Virus record (IMG/VR): IMGVR_UViG_2778261165_000022
Location: 1 to 10,351 of that record
Strand: one strand, 5' to 3'
Source: a virus
Taxonomy: Duplodnaviria; Heunggongvirae; Uroviricota; Caudoviricetes
DNA: 10,351 bases
The stretch's first letter is position 1, and every line of letters starts with the position of its first letter. Below, piece after piece: positions 1 to 10,351 of the stretch. The notes beneath the pieces are model-generated. The model worked only from the letters and a program-made list of their open reading frames with translations. It did not search any database and was not told where the DNA came from. The position numbers were made by a program, and so were the translations under genes.

Positions 1-1254
1 ATGCTGGAACAAATGGGCATTGCCGCGAAGCAAGCCTCGTATAAATTAGCGCAACTCTCCAGCCGCGAAAAAAATCGCGTGCTGGAAAAAATCGCCGATG
101 AACTGGAAGCACAAAGCGAAATCATCCTCAACGCTAACGCCCAGGATGTTGCTGACGCGCGAGCCAATGGCCTTAGCGAAGCGATGCTTGACCGTCTGGC
201 ACTGACGCCCGCACGGCTGAAAGGCATTGCCGACGATGTACGTCAGGTGTGCAACCTCGCCGATCCGGTGGGGCAGGTAATCGATGGCGGCGTACTGGAC
301 AGCGGCCTGCGTCTTGAGCGTCGTCGCGTACCGCTGGGGGTTATTGGCGTGATTTATGAAGCGCGCCCGAACGTGACGGTTGATGTCGCTTCGCTGTGCC
401 TGAAAACCGGTAATGCGGTGATCCTGCGCGGTGGCAAAGAAACGTGTCGCACTAACGCTGCAACGGTGGCGGTGATTCAGGACGCCCTGAAATCCTGCGG
501 CTTACCGGCGGGTGCCGTGCAGGCGATTGATAATCCTGACCGTGCGCTGGTCAGTGAAATGCTGCGTATGGATAAATACATCGACATGCTGATCCCGCGT
601 GGTGGCGCTGGTTTGCATAAACTGTGCCGCGAACAGTCGACGATCCCGGTGATCACAGGTGGTATAGGCGTATGCCATATTTATGTTGATGAAAGTGTAG
701 AGATTGCTGAAGCATTAAAAGTGATCGTCAACGCGAAAACTCAGCGTCCGAGCACATGTAATACGGTAGAAACGTTGCTGGTGAATAAAAACATCGCCGA
801 TAGCTTCCTGCCCGCATTAAGCAAACAAATGGAGGAAAGCGGCGTGGCATTACACGCAGATGCAGCTGCGCTGGCGCAGTTGCAGACAGGCCCCGCGAAG
901 GTGGTGGCTGTTAAAGCGGAAGAGTATGACGATGAGTTTCTGTCATTAGATTTGAACGTCAAAATCGTCAGTGATCTTGACGATGCCATCGCCCATATTC
1001 GTGAACACGGCACACAACACTCCGATGCGATCCTGACCCGCGATATGCGCAACGCCCAGCGTTTTGTTAACGAAGTGGATTCGTCCGCTGTTTACGTTAA
1101 CGCCTCTACGCGTTTTACCGACGGCGGCCAGTTTGGACTGGGTGCGGAAGTGGCGGTAAGCACACAAAAACTCCACGCGCGTGGCCCAATGGGGCTGGAA
1201 GCACTGACCACTTACAAGTGGATCGGCATTGGTGATTACACCATTCGTGCGTAA
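1..1254 (+). CDS. proA: gamma-glutamyl phosphate reductase (glutamate-5-semialdehyde dehydrogenase)
   Basis: 417-aa ORF from the track with TAA stop at 1252..1254. Length and sequence match enterobacterial ProA as I recall it. Window begins at its ATG. Confidence 0.95.
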
Positions 1255-1368
1255 ATAAAACCGGGTGATGCAAAAGTAGCCATTTGATTCACAAGGCCAT
1301 TGACGCATCGCCCGGTTAGTTTTAACCTTGTCCACCGTGATTCACGTTCGTGAACATGTCCTTTCAGG

Positions 1369-1444
1369 GCCGATATAGCTCAGTTGGTAGAGCAGCGCAT
1401 TCGTAATGCGAAGGTCGTAGGTTCGACTCCTATTATCGGCACCA
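1369..1444 (+). tRNA. thrW: tRNA-Thr (anticodon CGU), thrW-like
   Basis: 76 nt GCCGATATAGCTCAGTTGGTAGAGCAGCGCATTCGTAATGCGAAGGTCGTAGGTTCGACTCCTATTATCGGCACCA folds as a cloverleaf: acceptor stem GCCGATA/TATCGGC, D stem GCTC/GAGC, anticodon loop TTCGTAA (U33, CGT at 34-36, A37), T loop TTCGACT, discriminator A and encoded CCA. Sits directly downstream of proA, as thrW does in E. coli. Confidence 0.93.
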
Positions 1445-1460
1445 TTAAAATCAAGTAGTT
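1400..1460. other. probable prophage attL / integration junction at the tRNA 3' end
   Basis: The integrase stop codon (1459..1461) is 15 bp from the tRNA 3' end. tRNA-targeting integrases recombine within the 3' part of the tRNA and regenerate it. The second junction (attR) is outside the window, so core boundaries are not determinable. Confidence 0.4.
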
Positions 1461-2619
1461 ACCCCATATTTAAATACACCACGTTCTCCTCTTGTGCCGT
1501 ATTTGTGCCATTGCGACTTATAATCGCATCGATTTTGCTTGCGTGCTCGGTGAGATGCCCGGCTGAAAGGTGGGCGTATCTTTGAACCATTTCGAGAGTT
1601 TCCCATCCTCCCATCTCTTTAAGTGCAAGAAGAGAGACACCGGACTGAACCAGCCAGCTTGCCCAGGTATGCCTCAGATCATGGAAGCGGAAGTTACTAA
1701 TGCCTGCCCGCTTTAACGCTCCCTTCCATGCCTTGTTGCTGTCGGTTCTCATCTTCCTTACCGCTGCTGTTTTTGTTCCGTCGCTTCGGTAGGCAGGTTT
1801 GGTGTGGACAAATACCCATCTCTTATGGAGCCCCTGCTGTTTTCTTAATATCTGGCATGCGGTTTCGTTAAGAGGAACTCCGATCGCATTGCCAGCTTTT
1901 GTTTCATCAGGGTGTATCCATGCCATTTTCTTATCCAGATCGACCTGTGACCACTCAAGGTCTGTAACGTTGGAACGGCGAAGGCCTGTCGTGATTGCAA
2001 ACATGACCACAGGGAAGAAGTGAGGAGCAATTTCTGCAAACAGGCGCTTCGATTCCTCCTCTGTAAGCCATCTGATGCGTCCATTCTTAACGCGTGGTGT
2101 TGATATTTTGGGTGCCCTGTCAAGCCATCCCCATTCAACAGCCATATTGAGAATGGCGCGAAGTATTGCCAGATGCCTCGTCTTCGTTCCTTTGCTTGCA
2201 AGCTTTGGTTTATACTCCGGCACCGGATTGCCAAGTCGCAAACACCTGTCCCGGCTCATCTCCCAGTTCAGGCGATGGCGGCGGTTTTCCATCCCATCTA
2301 CCGCCTCCATTATTTTTTCTGTTGTTATGTCAGAGAGAATGGCTTCTCTGAAGTGCAACATCCAGAACGATATAATGCTCTTGTCATCATCAATGGACTT
2401 CTTATCCGATTTCTCACGCAGCCACCGTATGCAGGCTTCCTTGAATAGCTTTTTCGGTGATTCCCCGAGATTTTTTACTCTCCACGCTTCTGCTTTCAGA
2501 CGATCGTGAAGTTCTTGCGCTTGCCTTTTGTCCGATGTTTCAAGAGAGCGTCTAACTCTTGATCCATCTGGCGCGACGAAATCGCAGTGCCACGTGCCAC
2601 CGCGTAGTTTGATTGACAT
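1459..2619 (-). CDS. int: phage integrase, tyrosine recombinase (P22/lambda-like)
   Basis: 386-aa ORF with ATG at 2619 preceded by AGGAGG. C-terminal catalytic signature HDLRHTWASW ... VQRYAHL (His-x-x-Arg and catalytic Tyr). Placement next to a tRNA gene with xis overlapping upstream. Confidence 0.93.
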   Translation of the reverse strand: MSIKLRGGTWHCDFVAPDGSRVRRSLETSDKRQAQELHDRLKAEAWRVKNLGESPKKLFKEACIRWLREKSDKKSIDDDKSIISFWMLHFREAILSDITTEKIMEAVDGMENRRHRLNWEMSRDRCLRLGNPVPEYKPKLASKGTKTRHLAILRAILNMAVEWGWLDRAPKISTPRVKNGRIRWLTEEESKRLFAEIAPHFFPVVMFAITTGLRRSNVTDLEWSQVDLDKKMAWIHPDETKAGNAIGVPLNETACQILRKQQGLHKRWVFVHTKPAYRSDGTKTAAVRKMRTDSNKAWKGALKRAGISNFRFHDLRHTWASWLVQSGVSLLALKEMGGWETLEMVQRYAHLSAGHLTEHASKIDAIISRNGTNTAQEENVVYLNMG

Positions 2620-2843
2620 GCTTTAACCTCCTGCACATCAACCGCATTCACCGCGCTATTGTGTCTCACAGACTTAAGCGCCGCAATGCAGTCTGACTTG
2701 CAAATGCGATATGGGCTTTTAGGTTTATCTGGATTTATCTTTGCGGCCTGAAGTCGTCCACTTCGTATCCACTGCGTGATAGTGCCTTTGTCTACCTTCA
2801 GATACGACGCTGCCTCTTCACGAGTGAAGATTTCTTCTTCCAC
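2496..2843 (-). CDS. xis: excisionase-family DNA-binding protein
   Basis: 115-aa ORF whose N-terminus (EIFTREEAASYLKVDKGTITQWIRSGRL) looks like an excisionase/HTH_17 helix-turn-helix. Apparent GTG start at 2843 with GGAGA about 6 nt upstream. 3' end overlaps int by 124 nt, as is usual for xis-int pairs. Confidence 0.75.
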   Translation of the reverse strand: MEEEIFTREEAASYLKVDKGTITQWIRSGRLQAAKINPDKPKSPYRICKSDCIAALKSVRHNSAVNAVDVQEVKACQSNYAVARGTAISSRQMDQELDALLKHRTKGKRKNFTIV

Positions 2844-2933
2844 CTGGAATCTCCATTTATTGGATTGGTATTATTGCGGTAGGTCTGGATATCATTGAGC
2901 AATGAACAGGCCTCATCGAGTATGAGGCTGTGG

Positions 2934-3278
2934 TTAGTCCTTGCGTAGCTCGATGATTCTTCTGTAAGTCTCTGGTGCTTTGTTTCCGTGTATCTTCATT
3001 TCAGACTTCAACAGAGCAACGAGAGAATCCCATTCGTTGAGGATGCCTTTGAATGCCGGAACGCGCTTTGCAACCTTGTCGAATGAATCCCTGATTTCTG
3101 GAATCTGCTCGACAAGCGCAACGCATCGTCGGAAATCGGCTACATCATGTGGAGCGCCGAAGTGATGACCATAGATATTCTTTTTCAGTCCACATGCGAT
3201 TGAGGCAAGAGTTGCGCTACTGATGCCAACATCGCCAGTCGATTGCCATTTCAAAACCTTCATAGCCAAATCTGACAT
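2934..3278 (-). CDS. hypothetical phage protein (114 aa)
   Basis: Track ORF 2934..3305, but the first ATG lies inside a terminator hairpin. The ATG at 3278 (MSDLAMKVLKW...) is preceded by GGAGA at good spacing. No family recognised. Confidence 0.55.
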   Translation of the reverse strand: MSDLAMKVLKWQSTGDVGISSATLASIACGLKKNIYGHHFGAPHDVADFRRCVALVEQIPEIRDSFDKVAKRVPAFKGILNEWDSLVALLKSEMKIHGNKAPETYRRIIELRKD

Positions 3279-3290
3279 TTCTTGTCTCCA

Positions 3291-3312
3291 ATAAAAAACC
3301 GCCATCAGGCGG
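3291..3312 (-). terminator. intrinsic terminator (minus strand)
   Basis: Minus-strand reading GCCGCC-TGAT-GGCGG followed by TTTTTTAT. The hairpin contains the stop codon of the 55-aa ORF. Confidence 0.55.
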
Positions 3313-3472
3313 CTTGGTGTTCTTTCAGTTCTTCAATTCGAATATTGGTTACGTCTGCATGTGCTATCTGCGCCCATATCATCCAGTGGTCGTAGCAGTC
3401 GTTGATGTTCTCCGCTTCGATAACTCTGTTGAATGGCTCTCCATTCCATTCACCTGTGACTTTGAATTTCAT
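3305..3472 (-). CDS. hypothetical small protein (55 aa)
   Basis: Hand-translated ORF not in the track: MKFKVTGEWNGEPFNRVIEAENINDCYDHWMIWAQIAHADVTNIRIEELKEHQAA. ATG preceded by AGGTGA. Bracketed by intrinsic terminators on both sides. Coordinates approximate. Confidence 0.4.
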   Translation of the reverse strand: MKFKVTGEWNGEPFNRVIEAENINDCYDHWMIWAQIAHADVTNIRIEELKEHQAA

Positions 3473-3483
3473 TAAGTTTCACC

Positions 3484-3510
3484 TGTAAAAAAAGGAGCCG
3501 AAGCTCCTTT
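3484..3510 (-). terminator. intrinsic terminator (minus strand)
   Basis: Minus-strand AAAGGAGC-TTCG-GCTCCTTT followed by a T run, immediately after the TAA stop of the AntA-like gene (3515..3517). 8-bp stem with a UUCG tetraloop. Confidence 0.65.
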
Positions 3511-3514
3511 GATA

Positions 3515-4138
3515 TTAAAATTCGAATTGTCTCGCCCGAAGGCTTTTTAACATTGGTCTTGCCCGTTCGAAAATGGCGCTTGTCTGGTCAATTCGTGTTG
3601 CCTCCCTGAGCAATGCGTCTCTGTTTTTCGTCACCGTGTAGAAAGTCTCAAACGCGATGTCATACAGCTTGCTCGCGTATGATGAGTTCAGTTCCTTCAA
3701 TATCGGATACAGGCGTTTGCTGATGTCCTGTGCTTTCTCCATCTGTACCTGCATGTAGCAGAGGAGGATGATTTCCTCGTCTGTGAATTGCTGCGCTGGT
3801 TGCATGCTGCGAAGTTTCTTTTCACACTCGATGAAGTATCGGCGTATCTGGCGACCTTTTTCGTTACGCTCGACCATTGCCAGCTCTTTGGCTGTGTCGA
3901 GGGTGAGGTGATAGTCTTTGCTACGGCGATCGCCTCCTCGACCTTTGATTTCCCTATTTGGGGAAACCAAAATATAGTCCTGATTTTCAACGAATCCATA
4001 TTCAGCAATGCGTTCTGTAATCCACGATGCAAAGCGTTTACCTACCCCAAGAAAAGTATGTAAATCTCGAGCATTAACGAGAAGAGTGATTTCGTTGGCG
4101 ATAGTGCCGTTGAATACGGGGATGAGTTGACTGGTCAT
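3515..4138 (-). CDS. AntA/AntB-like antirepressor-domain protein
   Basis: 207-aa ORF, ATG at 4138 preceded by AAAGGA. The N-terminal segment ARDLHTFLGVGKRFASWITERIAEYGFVENQDY resembles the AntA/AntB antirepressor N-terminal domain as I recall it. The C-terminal half is unassigned. Confidence 0.6.
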   Translation of the reverse strand: MTSQLIPVFNGTIANEITLLVNARDLHTFLGVGKRFASWITERIAEYGFVENQDYILVSPNREIKGRGGDRRSKDYHLTLDTAKELAMVERNEKGRQIRRYFIECEKKLRSMQPAQQFTDEEIILLCYMQVQMEKAQDISKRLYPILKELNSSYASKLYDIAFETFYTVTKNRDALLREATRIDQTSAIFERARPMLKSLRARQFEF

Positions 4139-4462
4139 TTTTATGTCCTTTCGATTCGTTCAGATTACCCTGTGTTCAGCAGGGTGGTCAGGTACTTGAA
4201 CACCGTCGAAAGTTCGGCCCGCATCCTTAGCCTTGCGGCTGTTTTTCGGTATACGCGCTACCCGACCATATCTGAAAAATGGACATAAAAAATCCGCATG
4301 ACTGACGGGTGCGGTTTCCGCTTTCGAAGGTGTGTTCAGCACCATGAAGCGGAATATAGCCCCGTTAATGCGGATTTGTCAAATCATGTGGTCTTTATCT
4401 TGCTGTAAGCCGCGCCATTCGGTCTTTTCCCCCCAGATTTGGGGAAAACTATCTTGTCAAAA
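4139..4462. promoter_or_regulatory. structured intergenic region (candidate promoter/operator or small RNA locus)
   Basis: 324 bp without a convincing ORF. Two palindromes share a 7-nt centre with different arms: CCCTG-TGTTCAG-CAGGG (about 4168..4184) and GGTG-TGTTCAG-CACC (about 4327..4341). Two hairpins share the stem CCGCA/TGCGG, one followed by a T run on the plus strand (about 4219..4246), one followed by a T run on the minus strand (about 4287..4314). Inverted repeat TTTTCCCC-N8-GGGGAAAA at about 4425..4448. Confidence 0.4.
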
Positions 4463-5206
4463 TCATGCAGCCTTTCGTTCTCCTTCGATGAGTTCCTCGA
4501 TCTTGTGCACTCCCGCCTCGTTGTAGCGAAATGTCTCGACCTGCTTGTCACTGTGCGCCGATTTGTCGATGAACCACTTCCCGTACTTTTCTGTTTTGAG
4601 CATGTAGGTGTTGGCAATGCGCCCTACCTTGTTGGCTGAAATGCCAAGCATGGTGCCAACCTCCGACGCAGAGTAGTGATGTTCATCAATGACCGGAAGA
4701 GGGATTGCACTAAAGCCGACGACGGGATTAATCAGGCTGGCGGCAACGACCTGTTTAGCTTCCGGTGCGAGGTGAGGGAGGAAGTCGAAGAGGTCTTTCA
4801 TTGTGTCGACGGTCATTTTCAATGCGCGTGCCTTACGGAATTCTTCAAGGCCATCCGGTGATTTCTTCGTGGTCGTTTTTTGTTGCAACTGCTGTTGCAT
4901 TGATTCAAGTTTGTCGACCAGCGAACGACGGACGGCTTTCGACTCACGTGCGGCGACGCGCAGGGCTTGCTTGTAGGTCATCACTATAACCACCTGATCC
5001 GCTCCGCCTTTTTTCTTATCCATGGGGGTTACGAAAATTTCGTAACCCTCCCCCTCAAGCTCATCTTTGATGCGTGCAATGAAGTCGTTGTTGCGTACTT
5101 CTTTTTCGCCTCGCAGTCTCCGCGCCTCATTAACCATTTTCAACAGCATCTGGCTGTCAATTGTTGCAGCCGGAAACGAAGACTGATTTGCAATATTGTT
5201 AATCAT
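4463..5206 (-). CDS. hypothetical phage protein (247 aa), possible C-terminal HTH/KilA-C-like region
   Basis: Track ORF 4463..5263. The in-frame ATG at 5206 (MINNIANQ...) has AAGGA upstream; the ATG at 5263 has no Shine-Dalgarno. C-terminal SASEVGTMLGISANKVGRIAN looks helix-turn-helix-like. No confident family. Confidence 0.6.
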   Translation of the reverse strand: MINNIANQSSFPAATIDSQMLLKMVNEARRLRGEKEVRNNDFIARIKDELEGEGYEIFVTPMDKKKGGADQVVIVMTYKQALRVAARESKAVRRSLVDKLESMQQQLQQKTTTKKSPDGLEEFRKARALKMTVDTMKDLFDFLPHLAPEAKQVVAASLINPVVGFSAIPLPVIDEHHYSASEVGTMLGISANKVGRIANTYMLKTEKYGKWFIDKSAHSDKQVETFRYNEAGVHKIEELIEGERKAA

Positions 5207-5301
5207 GTATTCTGTCCTTTTCAGATAAAAGAAATCCCCGCGAGTGCGAGGATTGTTATTCATTGCCGATATTCACCTTTATCGCGAACACCTTTACCGG
5301 T

Positions 5302-5544
5302 TTATCTCCTTTGCATGGCGCGTAATTTTTTCAGATGGTTCTCCTGCTCTGTTTCAGCCAGAATTTGTCGGTATTCCTGGTGATCGATCCGTTCAAACAG
5401 TTCATTAAAATCGTTTATTTTTACCGACTGTGTTCGCCCATCCATTCTTCTGTACAACACAGTGTTGTTTATGCAGCGAAGAATTTTTATCGGGTAGCCG
5501 GCGCTATCGGTGTATATCTGACCACGTTGAATCAGAGCGAACAT
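5302..5544 (-). CDS. hypothetical small phage protein (80 aa)
   Basis: The track ORF begins with a TTG at 5598. The first ATG (MFALIQRGQIYTDSAG...) at 5544 has GGGGATAAAGGA upstream. No family recognised. Confidence 0.45.
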   Translation of the reverse strand: MFALIQRGQIYTDSAGYPIKILRCINNTVLYRRMDGRTQSVKINDFNELFERIDHQEYRQILAETEQENHLKKLRAMQRR

Positions 5545-5618
5545 TCCTTTATCCCCAGCGGAAAAGCGAATACAGAATAAATGCCACCGCGATTGCAACT
5601 CCTACAGCGGTGAATGCT

Positions 5619-6281
5619 TCAGGCCAATTCATCATTCACTCCCTGCGGCGGTTCTGGTAGCAGCATCCAGTACAAGGCGTTCCCTAACCACGATAAAGTG
5701 CCGTCGCTCAACTCCACGTATTCCCCTTGTACCTGTCCTGCCATATACTCGCCGTGCTTTGAATAAATTAAAACCCAATCGTCTTGAGCGGGAATTCGCT
5801 CACTACAGCTTATCCAACCATCCGGAATTACCGGAGAGTTGGTTGACGTTTCCGAGGTTTCCCGAAAATTATTGGTTGACGAATCCTTATTTTCCCGAAA
5901 GTTTCCAGCCTGAAGCATTGCGGCGCGGCAGGCGTTCCAGCCTCTCACCTCTGCAATAGCGGCAACAGCATCAACCGCGTACATGCTAAGAGGATTAGGC
6001 ATTGGTTTTTCTTCCGGTACTACTGGAACGGGTGGAGCGGCGTAGACTTCAATAATCCCATTATCAATAGGCCATTCTCCATCCTTGAGGTAGTCACTTG
6101 TGCCGTCAACTTTCTGTTCTGCAATGTGGAATGCACCTATTGGTTTTGCTTCCAGCGATACCAGTGCAATTCGTGCCAGTTCCTCCGCTTCTTCTGCTGG
6201 CAGTACAACGTTGCTACCCGGTCCGTATGTTTCGCGCCACTGCTTGATTGTCAGCAGTCGCTCTTTGGTTATAGTGGTCAT
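5619..6281 (-). CDS. DUF551-domain phage protein
   Basis: 220-aa ORF. C-terminal IPDGWISCSERIPAQDDWVLIYSKHGEYMAGQVQ...LSWLGNALYWMLLPEPP resembles the DUF551 domain common in lambdoid prophages. Its ATG overlaps the upstream gene's stop (ATGA), implying translational coupling. Confidence 0.7.
   Translation of the reverse strand: MTTITKERLLTIKQWRETYGPGSNVVLPAEEAEELARIALVSLEAKPIGAFHIAEQKVDGTSDYLKDGEWPIDNGIIEVYAAPPVPVVPEEKPMPNPLSMYAVDAVAAIAEVRGWNACRAAMLQAGNFRENKDSSTNNFRETSETSTNSPVIPDGWISCSERIPAQDDWVLIYSKHGEYMAGQVQGEYVELSDGTLSWLGNALYWMLLPEPPQGVNDELA
5839..5901. repeat. 33-bp imperfect tandem direct repeat inside the DUF551 CDS
   Basis: TTGGTTGACGTTTCCGAGGTTTCCCGAAAA and TTGGTTGACGAATCCTTATTTTCCCGAAAG, about 23/30 identical and 33 bp apart. 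Encodes the 11-aa repeat NFRENKDSSTN / NFRETSETSTN in the linker before the DUF551 domain. Confidence 0.6.
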
Positions 6282-6487
6282 TTGTTAATCCTCAAAACTT
6301 TATGCCCGGGCGCAAAAGCACGCGTTTTGTCTTTGCTTATTCGCCAGCCATCCTTGCGCGCCTCTTTTGCACAGCCAGCCCATGACGTACCGATATATTC
6401 ACCGAAGTCTGGCGTTTGATATTTACCATTTGTACACTGGCGACAATCACAGTAGAGATGCATGGTGTAACTTGCGGCAATAGCCAT
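6278..6487 (-). CDS. small Cys-rich protein (69 aa), possible zinc-binding
   Basis: Track ORF 6278..6649 begins with a TTG. The in-frame ATG at 6487 (MAIAASYTMHLYCDCRQCTNGKYQ...) has AAGGAG 7 nt upstream and lies 1 nt after the Ea22-like stop. Cys at positions 13, 15, 18 and 39. Confidence 0.5.
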   Translation of the reverse strand: MAIAASYTMHLYCDCRQCTNGKYQTPDFGEYIGTSWAGCAKEARKDGWRISKDKTRAFAPGHKVLRINK

Positions 6488-6488
6488 A

Positions 6489-7259
6489 TCACTCTCCTTT
6501 GATGCGAATACCAGCAGCGCGCTCGGCTTCACTTTGTTCCCAAAACCACTTGTGAAGCGCCATAAGCTTTTCGTCAATCGGTGCATATTTGCGATTAAAG
6601 TAGGCCTGAGCATCTTTCTCAGATTCGTCCGGTAATTCGCCAGGGCCAAACAGTGTGTTATAAATCCATGCTAGTCCGCTCTTAGCGTCGCCAGTTGCCT
6701 GCCATTCGATAATGGCAGCCTGCATGACCAGAATGTTTTTCCCGATTAATAGGTCCAGTTCTTTGTACCGGTTGCGGATGTATGCATTCTCGCTTTGTAA
6801 TTTTGCGTTGCGCTTTTCTGAGGCTTCAAGTAACGCCTGCTTATCGCGTAGCGCTTCTTCCAGTTCAGCAACATGGCATTCACTATCAATAAGGTTGTTC
6901 TCTGCTGCTTCAAGCTCAACACGCAGCTTCCCAACCGTAAGCGCAATCTCCTCGTTCTCCTGGTCGCGGCGTTTGATGTATTGCTGGTTTCTTTCCCGTT
7001 CATCCAGCAGGGCCAGCGCAACATTTGGATTAAAAGCAGCAATAAATTCAGCGTTTGCATAAGCCTGAACATCTGTTTCAACTAGGCAGTTAACATGACA
7101 TTCCGCAATCACACCACCGGGTTCTCCTTTCCATTTTTGGCAAACAAAAACTCCTGTTAAATTGCCGTGCTGGTTAACAGATGTATGCCCTACGATGTAG
7201 CTTCCTTTAGTTGCTTTCTCTGCCTTTTCACGCAGTGCCTGATAATCAATCTTGCTCAC
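6489..7259 (-). CDS. Ead/Ea22-like family protein (coiled-coil)
   Basis: 256-aa ORF, GTG start with AGGAGG 6 nt upstream. N-terminal [14 protein letters not shown] and a long Glu/Leu/Arg-rich central helix resemble the Ead/Ea22-like proteins of lambdoid prophages as I recall them. Confidence 0.65.
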
Positions 7260-7423
7260 TGGTTGCCTCCTTTGCGCAACATCGCATTCAGATATTTGTT
7301 GTCATTAACAGAACCGAAACTATTTCCCTTAAGCAATTCCTCTCTCGATGGCATTGGCTTTACGCGTTGGCGAATAATCATTTCTGCTGGAAGAATGCCG
7401 GGATTGTATGCAAGTCCTCTCAT
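7256..7423 (-). CDS. hypothetical small protein (55 aa)
   Basis: Hand-translated: [58 protein letters not shown] preceded by AGAGGA. Its stop overlaps the Ea22-like GTG start (GTGA). Coordinates approximate. Confidence 0.4.
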
Positions 7424-7439
7424 GGTAAATTCCTCTTTG

Positions 7440-7754
7440 TTAATTTATTCGTATGCCTTCTCTTTCTTCATCGAGTTTTTTTAGCTTGTATCGCATAGCT
7501 CTTACTGAATAAATTGAGCGGCAGGTTGCAATTGCTATTTCTTCTGCGGAGAACTTACCGAAAAGTGATACTTCGGCTCTTGTCCAGCGTCTTCCACGAA
7601 GTCGGCTAACAATGTCAGCGCCAATCCTTGTTGCTTTCGCCATTACTGCTTTCTCAGTCCTTTCCAGTTTTTCAGCGATAACTTCAACTGGCATTGTTGC
7701 CGCTACTTCGCGCAAGAAATCTACTTCCCATTTCTCCCAAGGAGTCTTTTTCAT
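7440..7754 (-). CDS. hypothetical protein (104 aa) with two internal HTH-like repeats
   Basis: Track ORF with ATG at 7754. Two similar segments, [32 protein letters not shown] and [32 protein letters not shown], share a W-x-x-E-x-x-L...IA pattern reminiscent of GcrA-type helix-turn-helix repeats. Confidence 0.5.
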
Positions 7755-7765
7755 AGGCGATACCG

Positions 7766-8248
7766 TTATTTGATAAGAAGTGAAGGTTTCCCAACCTTGA
7801 GTTGAGCGCCTGGGATATTTATTCCTGCTTTTAGTTGGTGCTTGATTGCCAACTTGTCGGCTTTAATTGTCGTTTCAAACTCAACGTATTCAGGAGGAAG
7901 GGCGCTTGAGTCGATGATTTCTACAGTTTCTGACGGTTTGCGGATTGTTACCTGGTGAATACCTGCTCGAATCTTTTTCTTGCCAACCATTTCAAGCGAT
8001 GACGCTATATATGATTTGATGCTGTCAATCTTATTTTGAATTACTGCGGCTCGCTCATTCAGCGACTTTGCCTCTTCCTTGAGGCGTTCAGCATAACCAG
8101 ATTCATTTTTAATAATGGCGAGAAGTTGCTCTATTTTATCGGTAAATTCTCCTTCCATGCCTTCTATTGTGTCAGCAATCATCTCTGGATCTAAATCTGA
8201 ATCCATCAATTTTGCGTATTCATTGGCTATTTCATATAGTTTGCTCAC
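7766..8248 (-). CDS. Siphovirus Gp157-like protein
   Basis: Track ORF 7766..8254 begins with a TTG. The GTG at 8248 has GGAGG 6 nt upstream. Sequence pattern (LYEIANEY..., DTIEGMEGEF, GKKKI, VTIRKPSETVEIID, LPPEYVEF, AIKHQLKAG, PGAQL) matches my recollection of the Gp157 family that often accompanies RecT. Confidence 0.65.
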   Translation of the reverse strand: MSKLYEIANEYAKLMDSDLDPEMIADTIEGMEGEFTDKIEQLLAIIKNESGYAERLKEEAKSLNERAAVIQNKIDSIKSYIASSLEMVGKKKIRAGIHQVTIRKPSETVEIIDSSALPPEYVEFETTIKADKLAIKHQLKAGINIPGAQLKVGKPSLLIK

Positions 8249-9143
8249 TGGCAACCTCCAGTTTCGCTTTGCATTCTATGTAAATGGCTTGTACGTTCTG
8301 CTGTAATTTCATTCCAGATGTTAGGCGATATGCTTCTGCAAAATATCGCTTCAAATCATCCATGTTTTCTGCCTGAGCCATTTCATCGCAAAGAAGTTGT
8401 ACTTTATCCATTATTTCCTGCTGGCGTTTCCGTTCATCTTCGCGGATATCTTCCTCTGATTTGTGCGGCATAACTGGTTCAGTCCACACACCTTCTTCTT
8501 CGTTTAGTACGTGAATAGCACTATCAAGACGTGATGCCTTAGGCCAATACTTGCTTGCACGCTTTACGACCGTCTTTCGCGCCATCTCATTCCAGTGATT
8601 TACCCATGGTCCTTTATCGCTGAATGCTGCCTTGCTTGTTTTCCTTACAGCCTCAATTTCAGCCAGACTCATCTCTTCCGTTAGATAATCACCTGCTGGC
8701 GTCTTAACTGTGCAGTAAACGCCAACGATATCACCACGATCACCGAAGGCGTTGTATTTATGGGTTGGTGCTTTATCAAGCCCGTTTGACTCATAGGTAT
8801 CGTTAGCATGAACAAGTTTTGCCTGACCCCATGAGATAACACCAGACTCCATTGCAATATGGAGCAATCCCATATAACTGATATCAAGGCAAACCATGCC
8901 GTCGCGCGGAACCAGATAAGCCAGTTTGCTGGCCGGGTTTAAGGTGATGCCGATCGCCGCAACATTGATGATGGCGTTCTGTGCGCTGGTTGGATTTGCC
9001 AGTGCCGTTTTAGCCAGGTAATCGTTTTTCTGGAAATACTGAATTGCAAACTGGCTTTCCTTAGCCCATGTCACCGTCTGTTCAGTCAATGCTCCGCAGA
9101 ATAACTGCTCTTGCTGTTTAACGAATTCAACGATATTGCTCAT
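8232..9143 (-). CDS. recT: RecT-family single-strand annealing recombinase
   Basis: 303-aa ORF, ATG at 9143 with GGAG 8 nt upstream. The motif GPWVNHWNEMARKTVVKRASKYWP closely parallels GPWVTHWEEMAKKTAIRRLFKYLP of Rac RecT. ATGA overlap with the upstream gene. Confidence 0.85.
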   Translation of the reverse strand: MSNIVEFVKQQEQLFCGALTEQTVTWAKESQFAIQYFQKNDYLAKTALANPTSAQNAIINVAAIGITLNPASKLAYLVPRDGMVCLDISYMGLLHIAMESGVISWGQAKLVHANDTYESNGLDKAPTHKYNAFGDRGDIVGVYCTVKTPAGDYLTEEMSLAEIEAVRKTSKAAFSDKGPWVNHWNEMARKTVVKRASKYWPKASRLDSAIHVLNEEEGVWTEPVMPHKSEEDIREDERKRQQEIMDKVQLLCDEMAQAENMDDLKRYFAEAYRLTSGMKLQQNVQAIYIECKAKLEVASEQTI

Positions 9144-9451
9144 GCAGCTTCTCCAAAAATGTGTCTGCGTTTGAATATTGCGAAGGCATATTCAGCCTTA
9201 ACTCTTTCGGTTATTGCATCCCAGAACCATTCAGCGGCTTTTTCCTGATAGTTACAATCATCATCTTCCAGCCAGTCGATAGCATCCTTAGTATGTTCAT
9301 CTGGTTTATATGAGCGAAGCATTTCGCTTATTGGGTCGCAACGTTTGCAGAGGCGATCAACTTCACTGTTGATTCGTTCGTAATCTTCATCAGTAAAACT
9401 TGCGATAATTTGCGATATTTCACGCTTATCATTCAGAGTCAGAATCATCAT
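9140..9451 (-). CDS. hypothetical acidic phage protein (103 aa)
   Basis: Track ORF with tandem ATG ATG at 9451 and GGAGA upstream. Rich in Asp/Glu. Translationally coupled to recT. Confidence 0.55.
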   Translation of the reverse strand: MMILTLNDKREISQIIASFTDEDYERINSEVDRLCKRCDPISEMLRSYKPDEHTKDAIDWLEDDDCNYQEKAAEWFWDAITERVKAEYAFAIFKRRHIFGEAA

Positions 9452-9532
9452 CTTTCTCCTGTTCTTTGTGCTGATTGAGCATTTTGTTCATCTGACGAAT
9501 GAATTCTTCGTCTGACCAGTTATCTGTAAAAC

Positions 9533-9685
9533 TCATTTCCTGCGATACCACGGAAGGTTGATAGCTGATTTCATCGCTTTATTTGCTTCAAGCCACATTT
9601 TTGAATCACCAATAAATCTGGCTATTACTGCTTTGTTTTGTGCAGCACGAAGCATCTGGTGATTGATGGCTATTTCATTGCGCAT
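9533..9685 (-). CDS. hypothetical small protein (50 aa)
   Basis: Hand-translated: MRNEIAINHQMLRAAQNKAVIARFIGDSKMWLEANKAMKSAINLPWYRRK. ATG preceded by GGAGG at 5 nt. Coordinates approximate. Confidence 0.4.
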   Translation of the reverse strand: MRNEIAINHQMLRAAQNKAVIARFIGDSKMWLEANKAMKSAINLPWYRRK

Positions 9686-9804
9686 AACGCCTCCAGTTGT
9701 TTCTTTGCTGCTCTGATTAATTGTTTAACTCGGCGTGATAATTCAGATTCGTGCGGGTAGAAAGCGGACATGACGCCGCTACCCGCGAGCTGAAAGTGCA
9801 TCAT
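9670..9804 (-). CDS. hypothetical small protein (44 aa)
   Basis: Track ORF 9670..9855. The in-frame ATG at 9804 (MMHFQLAGSG...) has AAGGAG about 7 nt upstream. 3' end overlaps the next ORF's start by 16 nt. Confidence 0.4.
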   Translation of the reverse strand: MMHFQLAGSGVMSAFYPHESELSRRVKQLIRAAKKQLEALCAMK

Positions 9805-9887
9805 GGGTAACTCCTTATATTTGATTGCATAACGAAAACGCCTCAAGTGAAGCATTATTGGTATGCGGTAAAGCCGCGCTTGGCGGC

Positions 9888-10225
9888 TTATTTGAAGACT
9901 TCTATGAAATCAAGAACTGATGATATTTCGTGGTTGAATGATTTTCTTTTATATCTTTCTATCGCAGAATCTACCTGGTGTTTATAGTCATCGTCGTTTG
10001 AGTATTTAACGAAGCATTCTATTGTCTCAGGCGTTACAGCCATAAGGCTCCACCAACCTTCATCAGATTGATATTCAAATCCCATGCTTTCAAGCCATCC
10101 AGCATATTTCCCTCCAGCATCTTGCCAGTGAGTCTTTTCTGCAAGAAAACTGTTAACCGTCATATGTGCATCAAGGCATTTATCCAACTGTTTACCATTA
10201 AGCAGCCATGCGCTGACAGTTGCAC
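9888..10225 (-). pseudogene. prophage early gene, probably truncated at its 5' end by IS2
   Basis: Track ORF 9888..10253 begins with a TTG inside the IS2 terminal repeat. The first native ATG (MTVNSF..., 10163) has no Shine-Dalgarno. The frame stays open up to the IS2 boundary, consistent with loss of the true N-terminus. Confidence 0.45.
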
Positions 10226-10351
10226 TAGACTGGCCCCATGAATCTCCAGACAACCAATATCACTTAAATAAGTGATAGTCTTAATACTAGTTTTTAGACT
10301 AGTCATTGGAGAGCAGATGATTGATGTCTTAGGACCGGAGAAACGCAGACG
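10226..10351 (+). mobile_element. IS2 (IS3 family) left end, partial; continues beyond the window
   Basis: TAGACTGGCCCC.TGAATCTCCAGACAACCAATATCACTTAAATAAGTGATAGTCTTAATACTAGTTTTTAGACTAGTCATTGGAG matches the IS2 left terminal region as I remember it, followed by the insC start. Confidence 0.8.
10317..10351 (+). CDS. insC: IS2 OrfA transposase (InsC), N-terminal 11 codons only
   Basis: ATG at 10317 preceded by GGAGAG. Translation MIDVLGPEKRR matches the InsC N-terminus (MIDVLGPEKRRRRTTQEK...) from memory. Confidence 0.75.
   Translation, partial: MIDVLGPEKRR

Follow-up and report, generated by a model that had tools for sequence, protein, structure and literature searches.

In the early-left operon of phage lambda, ral and gam are anti-defence genes, Gam being a DNA-mimic inhibitor of the host nuclease RecBCD; in addition, FtsH is inhibited by cIII and FtsZ is blocked by Kil. 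Gam's N-terminal helix plugs the single-strand channel of RecB (PMC5218532), and GamL, an anti-RecBCD protein of a different sequence type, is predicted to have a Gam-like fold (Zheng et al. 2025, PMC12315714). The present analysis deals with a stretch of 10,351 nucleotides (nt) from a tailed phage of the Caudoviricetes (IMG/VR record IMGVR_UViG_2778261165_000022, positions 1 to 10,351), referred to below as the window. The region considered here is the middle portion of the pL (early-left) operon in a lambdoid/P22-like prophage that appears to be integrated at thrW, and the subject is p103, a small acidic, predicted all-helical protein encoded directly 5' of the recombination gene recT.

Taking together its predicted fold, a shared sequence motif, its size and charge, the place of its gene and the absence of Chi sites from phages that carry it, p103 is interpreted with moderate confidence as a DNA-mimic RecBCD inhibitor of the Gam type, that is, a Gam-fold protein and remote homologue of lambda Gam. 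By analogy with Gam, it would dimerise, bind RecBCD and inhibit it. Such a block would protect the linear and rolling-circle DNA ends of the phage and would leave recombination to the phage RecT.

The p103 gene and its protein family

The p103 gene lies on the minus strand at 9140..9448 and encodes 102 amino acids (aa), or 103 aa if translation begins at 9451. The second ATG is preceded by AGGAG at a distance of 7 nt, coincides with the RefSeq start and fits the N-terminus M-[RKN]-L typical of the family. The 103-aa form contains 24 Asp and Glu residues and has a net charge of -9 and an isoelectric point (pI) of 4.65; acidity is a property of the whole family, in which the median net charge is likewise -9. 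The initial annotation had described both this protein and the neighbouring product truncated by an insertion sequence (IS) as rich in Asp and Glu, which holds for p103, whereas the truncated neighbour (16% Asp plus Glu, pI 4.8) is only moderately acidic.

Pfam and PHROG scans assign p103 to no Pfam family and to a single PHROG, phrog_3486, which is labelled "unknown function". The protein is "hypothetical" in every annotation in which it was encountered, and no functional description came up in the literature searched by accession, PHROG number, HK140 and mEpX1. A word-indexed search gives 27 close relatives, and an exhaustive HMMER search extends the family to 54 representative clusters at 50% identity, from phages of Escherichia, Salmonella, Cronobacter and Erwinia. 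About 30 of the matches are full-length (approximately 100 aa) at 24-52% identity, and the length of the family is constant. The gene is present in 265 of 5,426 complete E. coli genomes, always as a "hypothetical protein" beside recT, and in the isolated phages Kapi1, HK140, mEpX1, Gally and SEN22.

An AlphaFold2 prediction based on 33 family sequences yields a five-helix model with a predicted local distance difference test score (pLDDT) of 92.8 and a predicted template modelling score (pTM) of 0.79. An earlier model, built with five close homologues, was poor (pLDDT 75). The weak Foldseek similarity of that first model to T4 UvsY (E about 5) was dropped as noise, every match in the PDB search having E>1.

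Comparison of p103 with lambda Gam

The p103 family was compared by hhalign with an alignment of 19 Gam proteins. A local match aligns residues 52-80 of p103 with residues 57-85 of GamS at 34% identity (score 23.8, P 7e-4); when the columns of the Gam alignment are shuffled, the mean score is 11.1 (standard deviation 2.1) and none of 300 shuffles reaches 23.8, while reversed alignments score about 12. The matched block comprises the most conserved positions of both families: A56-x3-L60-x3-D64-[CVI]-[DE]-[YF]67-Q68-[ED]69 in p103 and A61-x4-F66-D-D-D69-V-[ED]-F72-Q73-E74 in Gam, where DDDVEFQE is invariant. Within it, Q68, the most conserved column of the p103 family, falls on the invariant Q73 of Gam, and D64, [YF]67 and [ED]69 correspond to D69, F72 and E74, respectively. 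Outside the block, collinear landmarks are found in the N-terminal D7..E10...I14...[LF]18 of p103, which parallels D8..E11...W15...Y19 of Gam, and in P39, which parallels P40. The Gam core motif FDDDV[ED]FQE and its collinear landmarks are thus recovered locally, at an hhalign probability of 26%.

At the level of tertiary structure, the predicted p103 model shows the helical fold of GamS. The physical properties are also comparable: p103 has 102 aa and a net charge of -9, GamS 98 aa and -10, and GamL 93-94 aa and -7 or -8. The suggestion, made originally for the acidic small proteins of this operon, that they may be DNA mimics therefore survives for p103 in the form of a Gam-type protein, on the grounds of fold, motif, size, charge, position and Chi content, and not in its anti-restriction form, since no Ocr-, ArdA- or Ral-type family appears in the Pfam and PHROG scans or among the fold matches. 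Similarly, the structure prediction proposed at that stage for recognising a DNA-mimic fold produced a confident five-helix model with the GamS-like arrangement, while Foldseek did not return Gam.

The differences from lambda Gam (GamS; PF06064; PDB 2UUZ, 5MBV) are substantial. Overall identity is about 15%; p103 is not recognised by the Pfam Gam model; the invariant W15, H18 and Y19 of Gam are replaced by I, any residue and [LF] in p103; and p103 has no long isoform overlapping kil, a separate 35-aa open reading frame (ORF) lying upstream instead. If the relationship is correct, the Gam kind would gain in p103 a strongly diverged member that fails Pfam membership and shares fold, motif, position and physical properties. 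The loss of the invariant N-terminal W/H/Y residues would be compatible with an altered binding site. In this context, p103 could have kept the Gam fold and been retargeted to another host enzyme or to a defence system acting as a sensor or guard of DNA ends or RecBCD. This reading applies to modules that already possess a Gp157/"MuGam" protein and would represent a new anti-defence specificity on a Gam scaffold; we regard it as rather improbable.

Genomic context of p103

The p103 gene occupies the position of gam between kil/cIII and the recombination genes, both in the window and in all related loci that were inspected. The genes cIII and kil, or kil-like ORFs, lie 5' of it, matching the order cIII-kil-gam-bet-exo, which was confirmed for lambda. 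At its 3' end, p103 shares an ATGA or TAATG overlap with the start of the first recombination gene, without exception among the loci examined. The C-terminal residues E-[AV]-A (9140-9151 in the window) are dual-coded with the GGAG/GAGG Shine-Dalgarno (SD) sequence and the ATGA/TAATG junction of the downstream gene, which implies that translational coupling is conserved across the family.

This junction is an argument for regarding p103 as an accessory or mediator protein of the phage recombinase, such as a RecT loader or partner comparable to P22 Arf or T4 UvsY. In favour of such a role, more than 80 loci have the p103 stop and the recT start overlapping as ATGA, although these are at least 98% identical, having been collected by a close-alignment search, and their number is no measure of diversity; the use of E-[AV]-A as a downstream SD implies stoichiometric co-expression; and the first, poor model gave the weak UvsY matches mentioned above. 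The genes that follow p103 are, however, variable. RecT follows in 80+ IMG/VR loci and in locus L094; RecT together with a YqaJ/Exo nuclease is found in ENT47670, Midgardsormr38 and loci L004 and L096; and a DUF3799 PD-(D/E)XK nuclease takes this place in SEN22 and locus L095. In SEN22 (locus L005, 3498-5196), p103 is 95% identical to that of the window and is followed by a DUF3799 nuclease ("exonuclease VIII") and a 189-aa protein without a Pfam family in place of RecT and Gp157, with the mosaic joint placed exactly at the ATGA junction. The association of p103 with different recombinase and nuclease types argues for a host-directed component of the module rather than a dedicated RecT partner, and a recombinase accessory role is considered unlikely.

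With respect to the Gam-type interpretation of p103, a further comparison is with the homologous module of HK639, whose RecT and Gp157 (HK639_38) are 67.7% and 61.9% identical to those of the window, and in which the slot before recT is filled by GamL. The GamL proteins of phi80 and HK639 thus resemble p103 in their place before a homologous RecT, in the parallel between GamL-RecT-Gp157 (HK639) and p103-RecT-Gp157, and in length and acidity. They differ in that GamL keeps the Gam N-terminal sequence MNAYLTYDRIE, absent from p103, whereas the DDDxxFQE motif common to p103 and Gam is absent from GamL. The possibility that p103 is itself a GamL was ruled out, because hhalign against HK639 GamL gives E 0.38 and there is no common motif.

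The 2025 census of lambdoid recombination modules distinguishes, in its main text, four anti-RecBCD types, none of which is p103; HK140, which carries the same module as the window, is listed there as SAP-4 plus MuGam only, with no nuclease, and HK639 is reported with both GamL and MuGam as the sole phage with two anti-RecBCD genes (PMC12315714). As far as that main text goes, p103 seems not to have been recognised.

Chi sites and the proposed target of p103

Avoidance of Chi (GCTGGTGG) in lambdoid phages that encode a RecBCD inhibitor, and its over-representation in those that have a recombinase and lack an inhibitor, were reported in 2013 by Bobay et al. (PMC3784561) and in 2025 by Zheng et al. 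(PMC12315714). In ENT47670, Midgardsormr38 and SEN22, p103 is present and tblastn detects no lambda Gam, GamL, Abc2 or Gp157. These three genomes together contain no Chi site in 139 kb, against 8.15 expected under an order-2 Markov model (Poisson P 3e-4). Within the limits of a small sample, the complete lack of Chi is what would be predicted if p103 were the inhibitor of these three phages.

The same data bear on the proposal that p103 is an acidic DNA mimic acting on some other target, be it restriction enzymes, a defence system or another nuclease of the host, for instance SbcCD. The protein is acidic and helical, the early-left operon is known to house anti-defence genes, and the Gp157/"MuGam" protein of the module could free p103 for a different target. 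Nevertheless, neither sequence nor fold comparison connects p103 with Ocr, ArdA, Ral or another anti-restriction family, it is strictly tied to recombination modules and not to the ral/sieB region, and the Chi depletion points to RecBCD specifically. A mimic with such a target is accordingly held to be improbable.

Several observations weigh against p103 being a Gam-fold inhibitor of RecBCD. The protein does not match the Pfam Gam family PF06064 (gathering threshold 25 bits) even at E<=1, while with the same library 215 bits are reached by lambda Gam and 13-14 bits by GamL. HMMER profile searches of the PDB sequences, run with profiles of 5 and 33 sequences, did not find Gam. The hhalign match is 29 columns long and its probability is only the value given above; the global comparison of p103 with Gam is not significant (E 0.13), the local block alone being so. 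Foldseek failed to retrieve Gam both from PDB, searched with the low-confidence model, and from BFVD, searched with the good model, where one likely family member was the only match, and the structural evidence consists of one predicted monomer from one program. In sequence, p103 is unrelated to GamL. The module of the window also encodes Gp157/"MuGam", so that a second end-protection or anti-RecBCD function looks redundant, although the pair GamL and MuGam is reported for HK639. Finally, the Chi test covers three genomes with small expected counts.

The genes cIII, kil and the 35-aa ORF

Four overlapping, translationally coupled minus-strand ORFs span positions 9140-9804, 5' of recT. The small overlapping ORFs noted before recT in the initial annotation are all present at that place (103/102, 50, 44 and 35 aa), and the overlaps between their starts and stops are borne out, with 16 nt shared by cIII and kil, ATGA between kil and the 35-aa ORF, 23 nt between the 35-aa ORF and p103, and ATGA between p103 and recT. 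The good SD sequences claimed for them are found for cIII (TAAGGAG), kil (GGAGG) and p103 (AGGAG) and not for the 35-aa ORF. The host-takeover position in the early-left operon is confirmed more directly than had been anticipated, as kil and cIII, cited earlier merely as examples, are identified by Pfam as two of these ORFs. With cIII and kil followed by a small Arf-like ORF, then by p103 and finally by a single-strand annealing protein, the gene order would be the canonical one, and the set would form one translationally coupled unit.

The first gene, cIII (9670..9804, minus strand), encodes the 44-aa FtsH-inhibitor regulator of lysogeny (PF08134, E 4.6e-30, 103.5 bits against a gathering cutoff of 25; phrog_550). 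It starts with ATG, 6 nt downstream of TAAGGAG; its 135-nt coding sequence is a "hypothetical protein" in RefSeq E. coli genomes and is named cIII in Kapi1. A 61-aa form reaching to 9855 was rejected as a mechanical extension, the Pfam match covering residues 19-55 only; because a terminator-like hairpin lies inside the extension, the latter is regarded as non-coding. The second gene, kil (9533..9685, minus strand), encodes the 50-aa inhibitor peptide of host cell division (FtsZ) (PF06301 Lambda_Kil, E 1.7e-20, 72.6 bits against a cutoff of 27.6; phrog_2055, E 1.2e-35) and bears the same name in RefSeq. Both products are basic, with pI values of 9.9 for cIII and 11.0 for Kil. Judging from family membership, cIII would inhibit FtsH and thereby stabilise CII, and Kil would block FtsZ. 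With respect to their lambda counterparts, the matches are full-length and above the Pfam gathering scores, the order is the same and the genes overlap; the differences do not go beyond the sequence divergence usual for lambdoid alleles. Both are already known genes.

ORFs of 38-40 aa located directly 5' of distant p103 homologues (ORF50 of Midgardsormr38, positions 3388-3504 of locus L007, and positions 152-274 of locus L004) resemble each other and are loosely Kil-like (...A..E.....D..W..A...). On the basis of this pattern, those of Midgardsormr38 and L004 may be unrecognised kil analogues.

Between kil and p103 lies the 35-aa ORF (9429..9536, minus strand), the most acidic of the set, with 31% Asp plus Glu. 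It belongs to phrog_17766 (E 7.6e-16), and its first 20 residues match phrog_2123 ("recombinase", E 5.3e-10). Its ATG overlaps the kil stop as ATGA; with a poor SD of its own (AGGA at a distance of 1 nt), it would have to be translated by coupling. Conservation of the N-terminal 21-28 aa, following kil or cIII, extends to HK97 (gp42.1), HK022, Sf6, SEN22 and others; in SEN22, which has no kil, the start of the ORF is overlapped by the cIII stop. In the Cronobacter phage ENT47670, a diverged homologue lies between kil and the p103 homologue, the latter being 49% identical to p103. The motif [FW]SDEEFI is common to the 35-aa ORF and P22 Arf, the cofactor of Erf recombination. Like Arf, which is encoded between kil and erf, and HK97 gp42.1, the product is a small, very acidic peptide placed between kil and the recombination genes; the likeness nevertheless spans no more than about 20 residues, with unrelated C-terminal halves. 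Taken together, these sequence features indicate that the 35-aa ORF is probably a real gene for a small accessory peptide of the Arf/gp42.1 type.

A natural in-frame fusion of the 35-aa ORF with the C-terminal 40% of p103 is found in a 69-aa E. coli protein (P0025; ...EQEKDDD/CNYQEK...). It apparently arose by a deletion between the two GATGATGAT (DDD) repeats; the corresponding regions of the window are 9429-9451 and about 9253-9264.

The 35-aa ORF is also the starting point for the view that, cIII and kil apart, the small ORFs arose by chance or are decaying leftovers of a defective prophage. Its close variants show more non-synonymous than synonymous changes, and it has a poor SD and no RefSeq annotation, although it is annotated in Kapi1 as Kapi1_014; moreover, an IS cuts this copy of the operon from pL. 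The excess of non-synonymous changes comes from a dN/dS-style (non-synonymous versus synonymous) count that is uninformative and gives no clear sign of purifying selection. Against this view, each of the 21 DNA variants collected retains an intact 35-aa ORF, of which ENT47670 has the diverged homologue, while p103 belongs to a family of 54 clusters from four host genera, with constant length and a confident AlphaFold2 model, and is carried by the functional phages Kapi1, HK140, mEpX1 and Gally. That these ORFs are non-functional is therefore judged very improbable.

Flanking genes and state of the prophage

The tRNA-Thr(CGT) gene at 1369-1444 stands between proA, directly 5' of it, and the prophage integrase at 1459-2619. 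From this arrangement, the prophage appears to be integrated at the tRNA-Thr gene beside proA.

Downstream of p103, recT (8232..9143, minus strand) encodes the 303-aa single-strand annealing protein (Pfam RecT, E 3.3e-32; phrog_148). It is followed, also on the minus strand, by the Sipho_Gp157 gene (7766..8248; PF05565, E 1.8e-38; phrog_253), with a RefSeq start at 8248, whose product is labelled "Mu Gam-like end protection" in PHROGs and "MuGam" in PMC12315714. The next minus-strand gene (7440..7754) encodes a 104-aa protein assigned to phrog_11492 and phrog_323, with conflicting labels for its putative function: phage Gally has "Anti-RecBCD protein 1 (Abc1-like)", PHROGs "D5-like transcriptional regulator". 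Since its similarity to P22 Abc1 is restricted to a short helix-turn-helix-like segment, with an HTH_12 match below threshold, the Abc1 label looks weak from the sequence.

Upstream of cIII, the untranslated leader extends from the stop of the preceding phrog_8967 gene to the cIII start (9805-9887). A consensus scan places a terminator-like hairpin on the minus strand at 9837..9856, and a further short GC hairpin followed by TTT is seen at about 9870-9887. These leader hairpins may be tL-type terminators read through by N antitermination.

The phrog_8967 gene itself is present as its 3' part of approximately 111 codons (9888..10225, minus strand; positions 21-138 of 138, E 8.4e-69), the complete product having 138 aa. 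At 10226..10351 (plus strand) begins the left end of a multi-copy IS3-family (IS2-like) element, where a RefSeq "IS3 family transposase" also starts; this part of the query matches 22,845 places in E. coli genomes. The IS sits inside the phrog_8967 gene in the orientation opposite to the operon and has removed about 26 codons from its 5' end. E. coli EC28 carries an intact 417-nt gene, and relatives not interrupted by the IS match the window only as far as position 10225. The initial annotation had linked the truncated neighbour, speculatively, to acidic host-directed factors, and no support was obtained for this: phrog_8967 is of unknown function, and Pfam and PDB sequence searches with the truncated protein gave no match.

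The IS parts cIII-kil-p103-recT from pL and N. Roughly 1 kb further upstream, the source genome carries another IS, ISVsa5; positions 4218-5446 and 6523-7252 of locus L001 correspond to this pair of insertions. This copy of the prophage is probably defective, and expression of the operon in this strain is doubtful, whatever intact phages do.

Implications

Most of the region is ordinary, cIII, kil and the operon architecture having been known since lambda, and the useful part is the 102-aa p103. Its comparison with Gam supplies the motif D-x-[DE]-[FY]-Q-E as a link among very divergent Gam proteins. If p103 does represent a third sequence lineage of Gam-fold RecBCD inhibitors, it would provide new RecBCD inhibitors for recombineering and for probing the defence systems that monitor RecBCD. 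Furthermore, certain phages at present counted as inhibitor-free would change class, and the rule of Chi avoidance would be sharpened.

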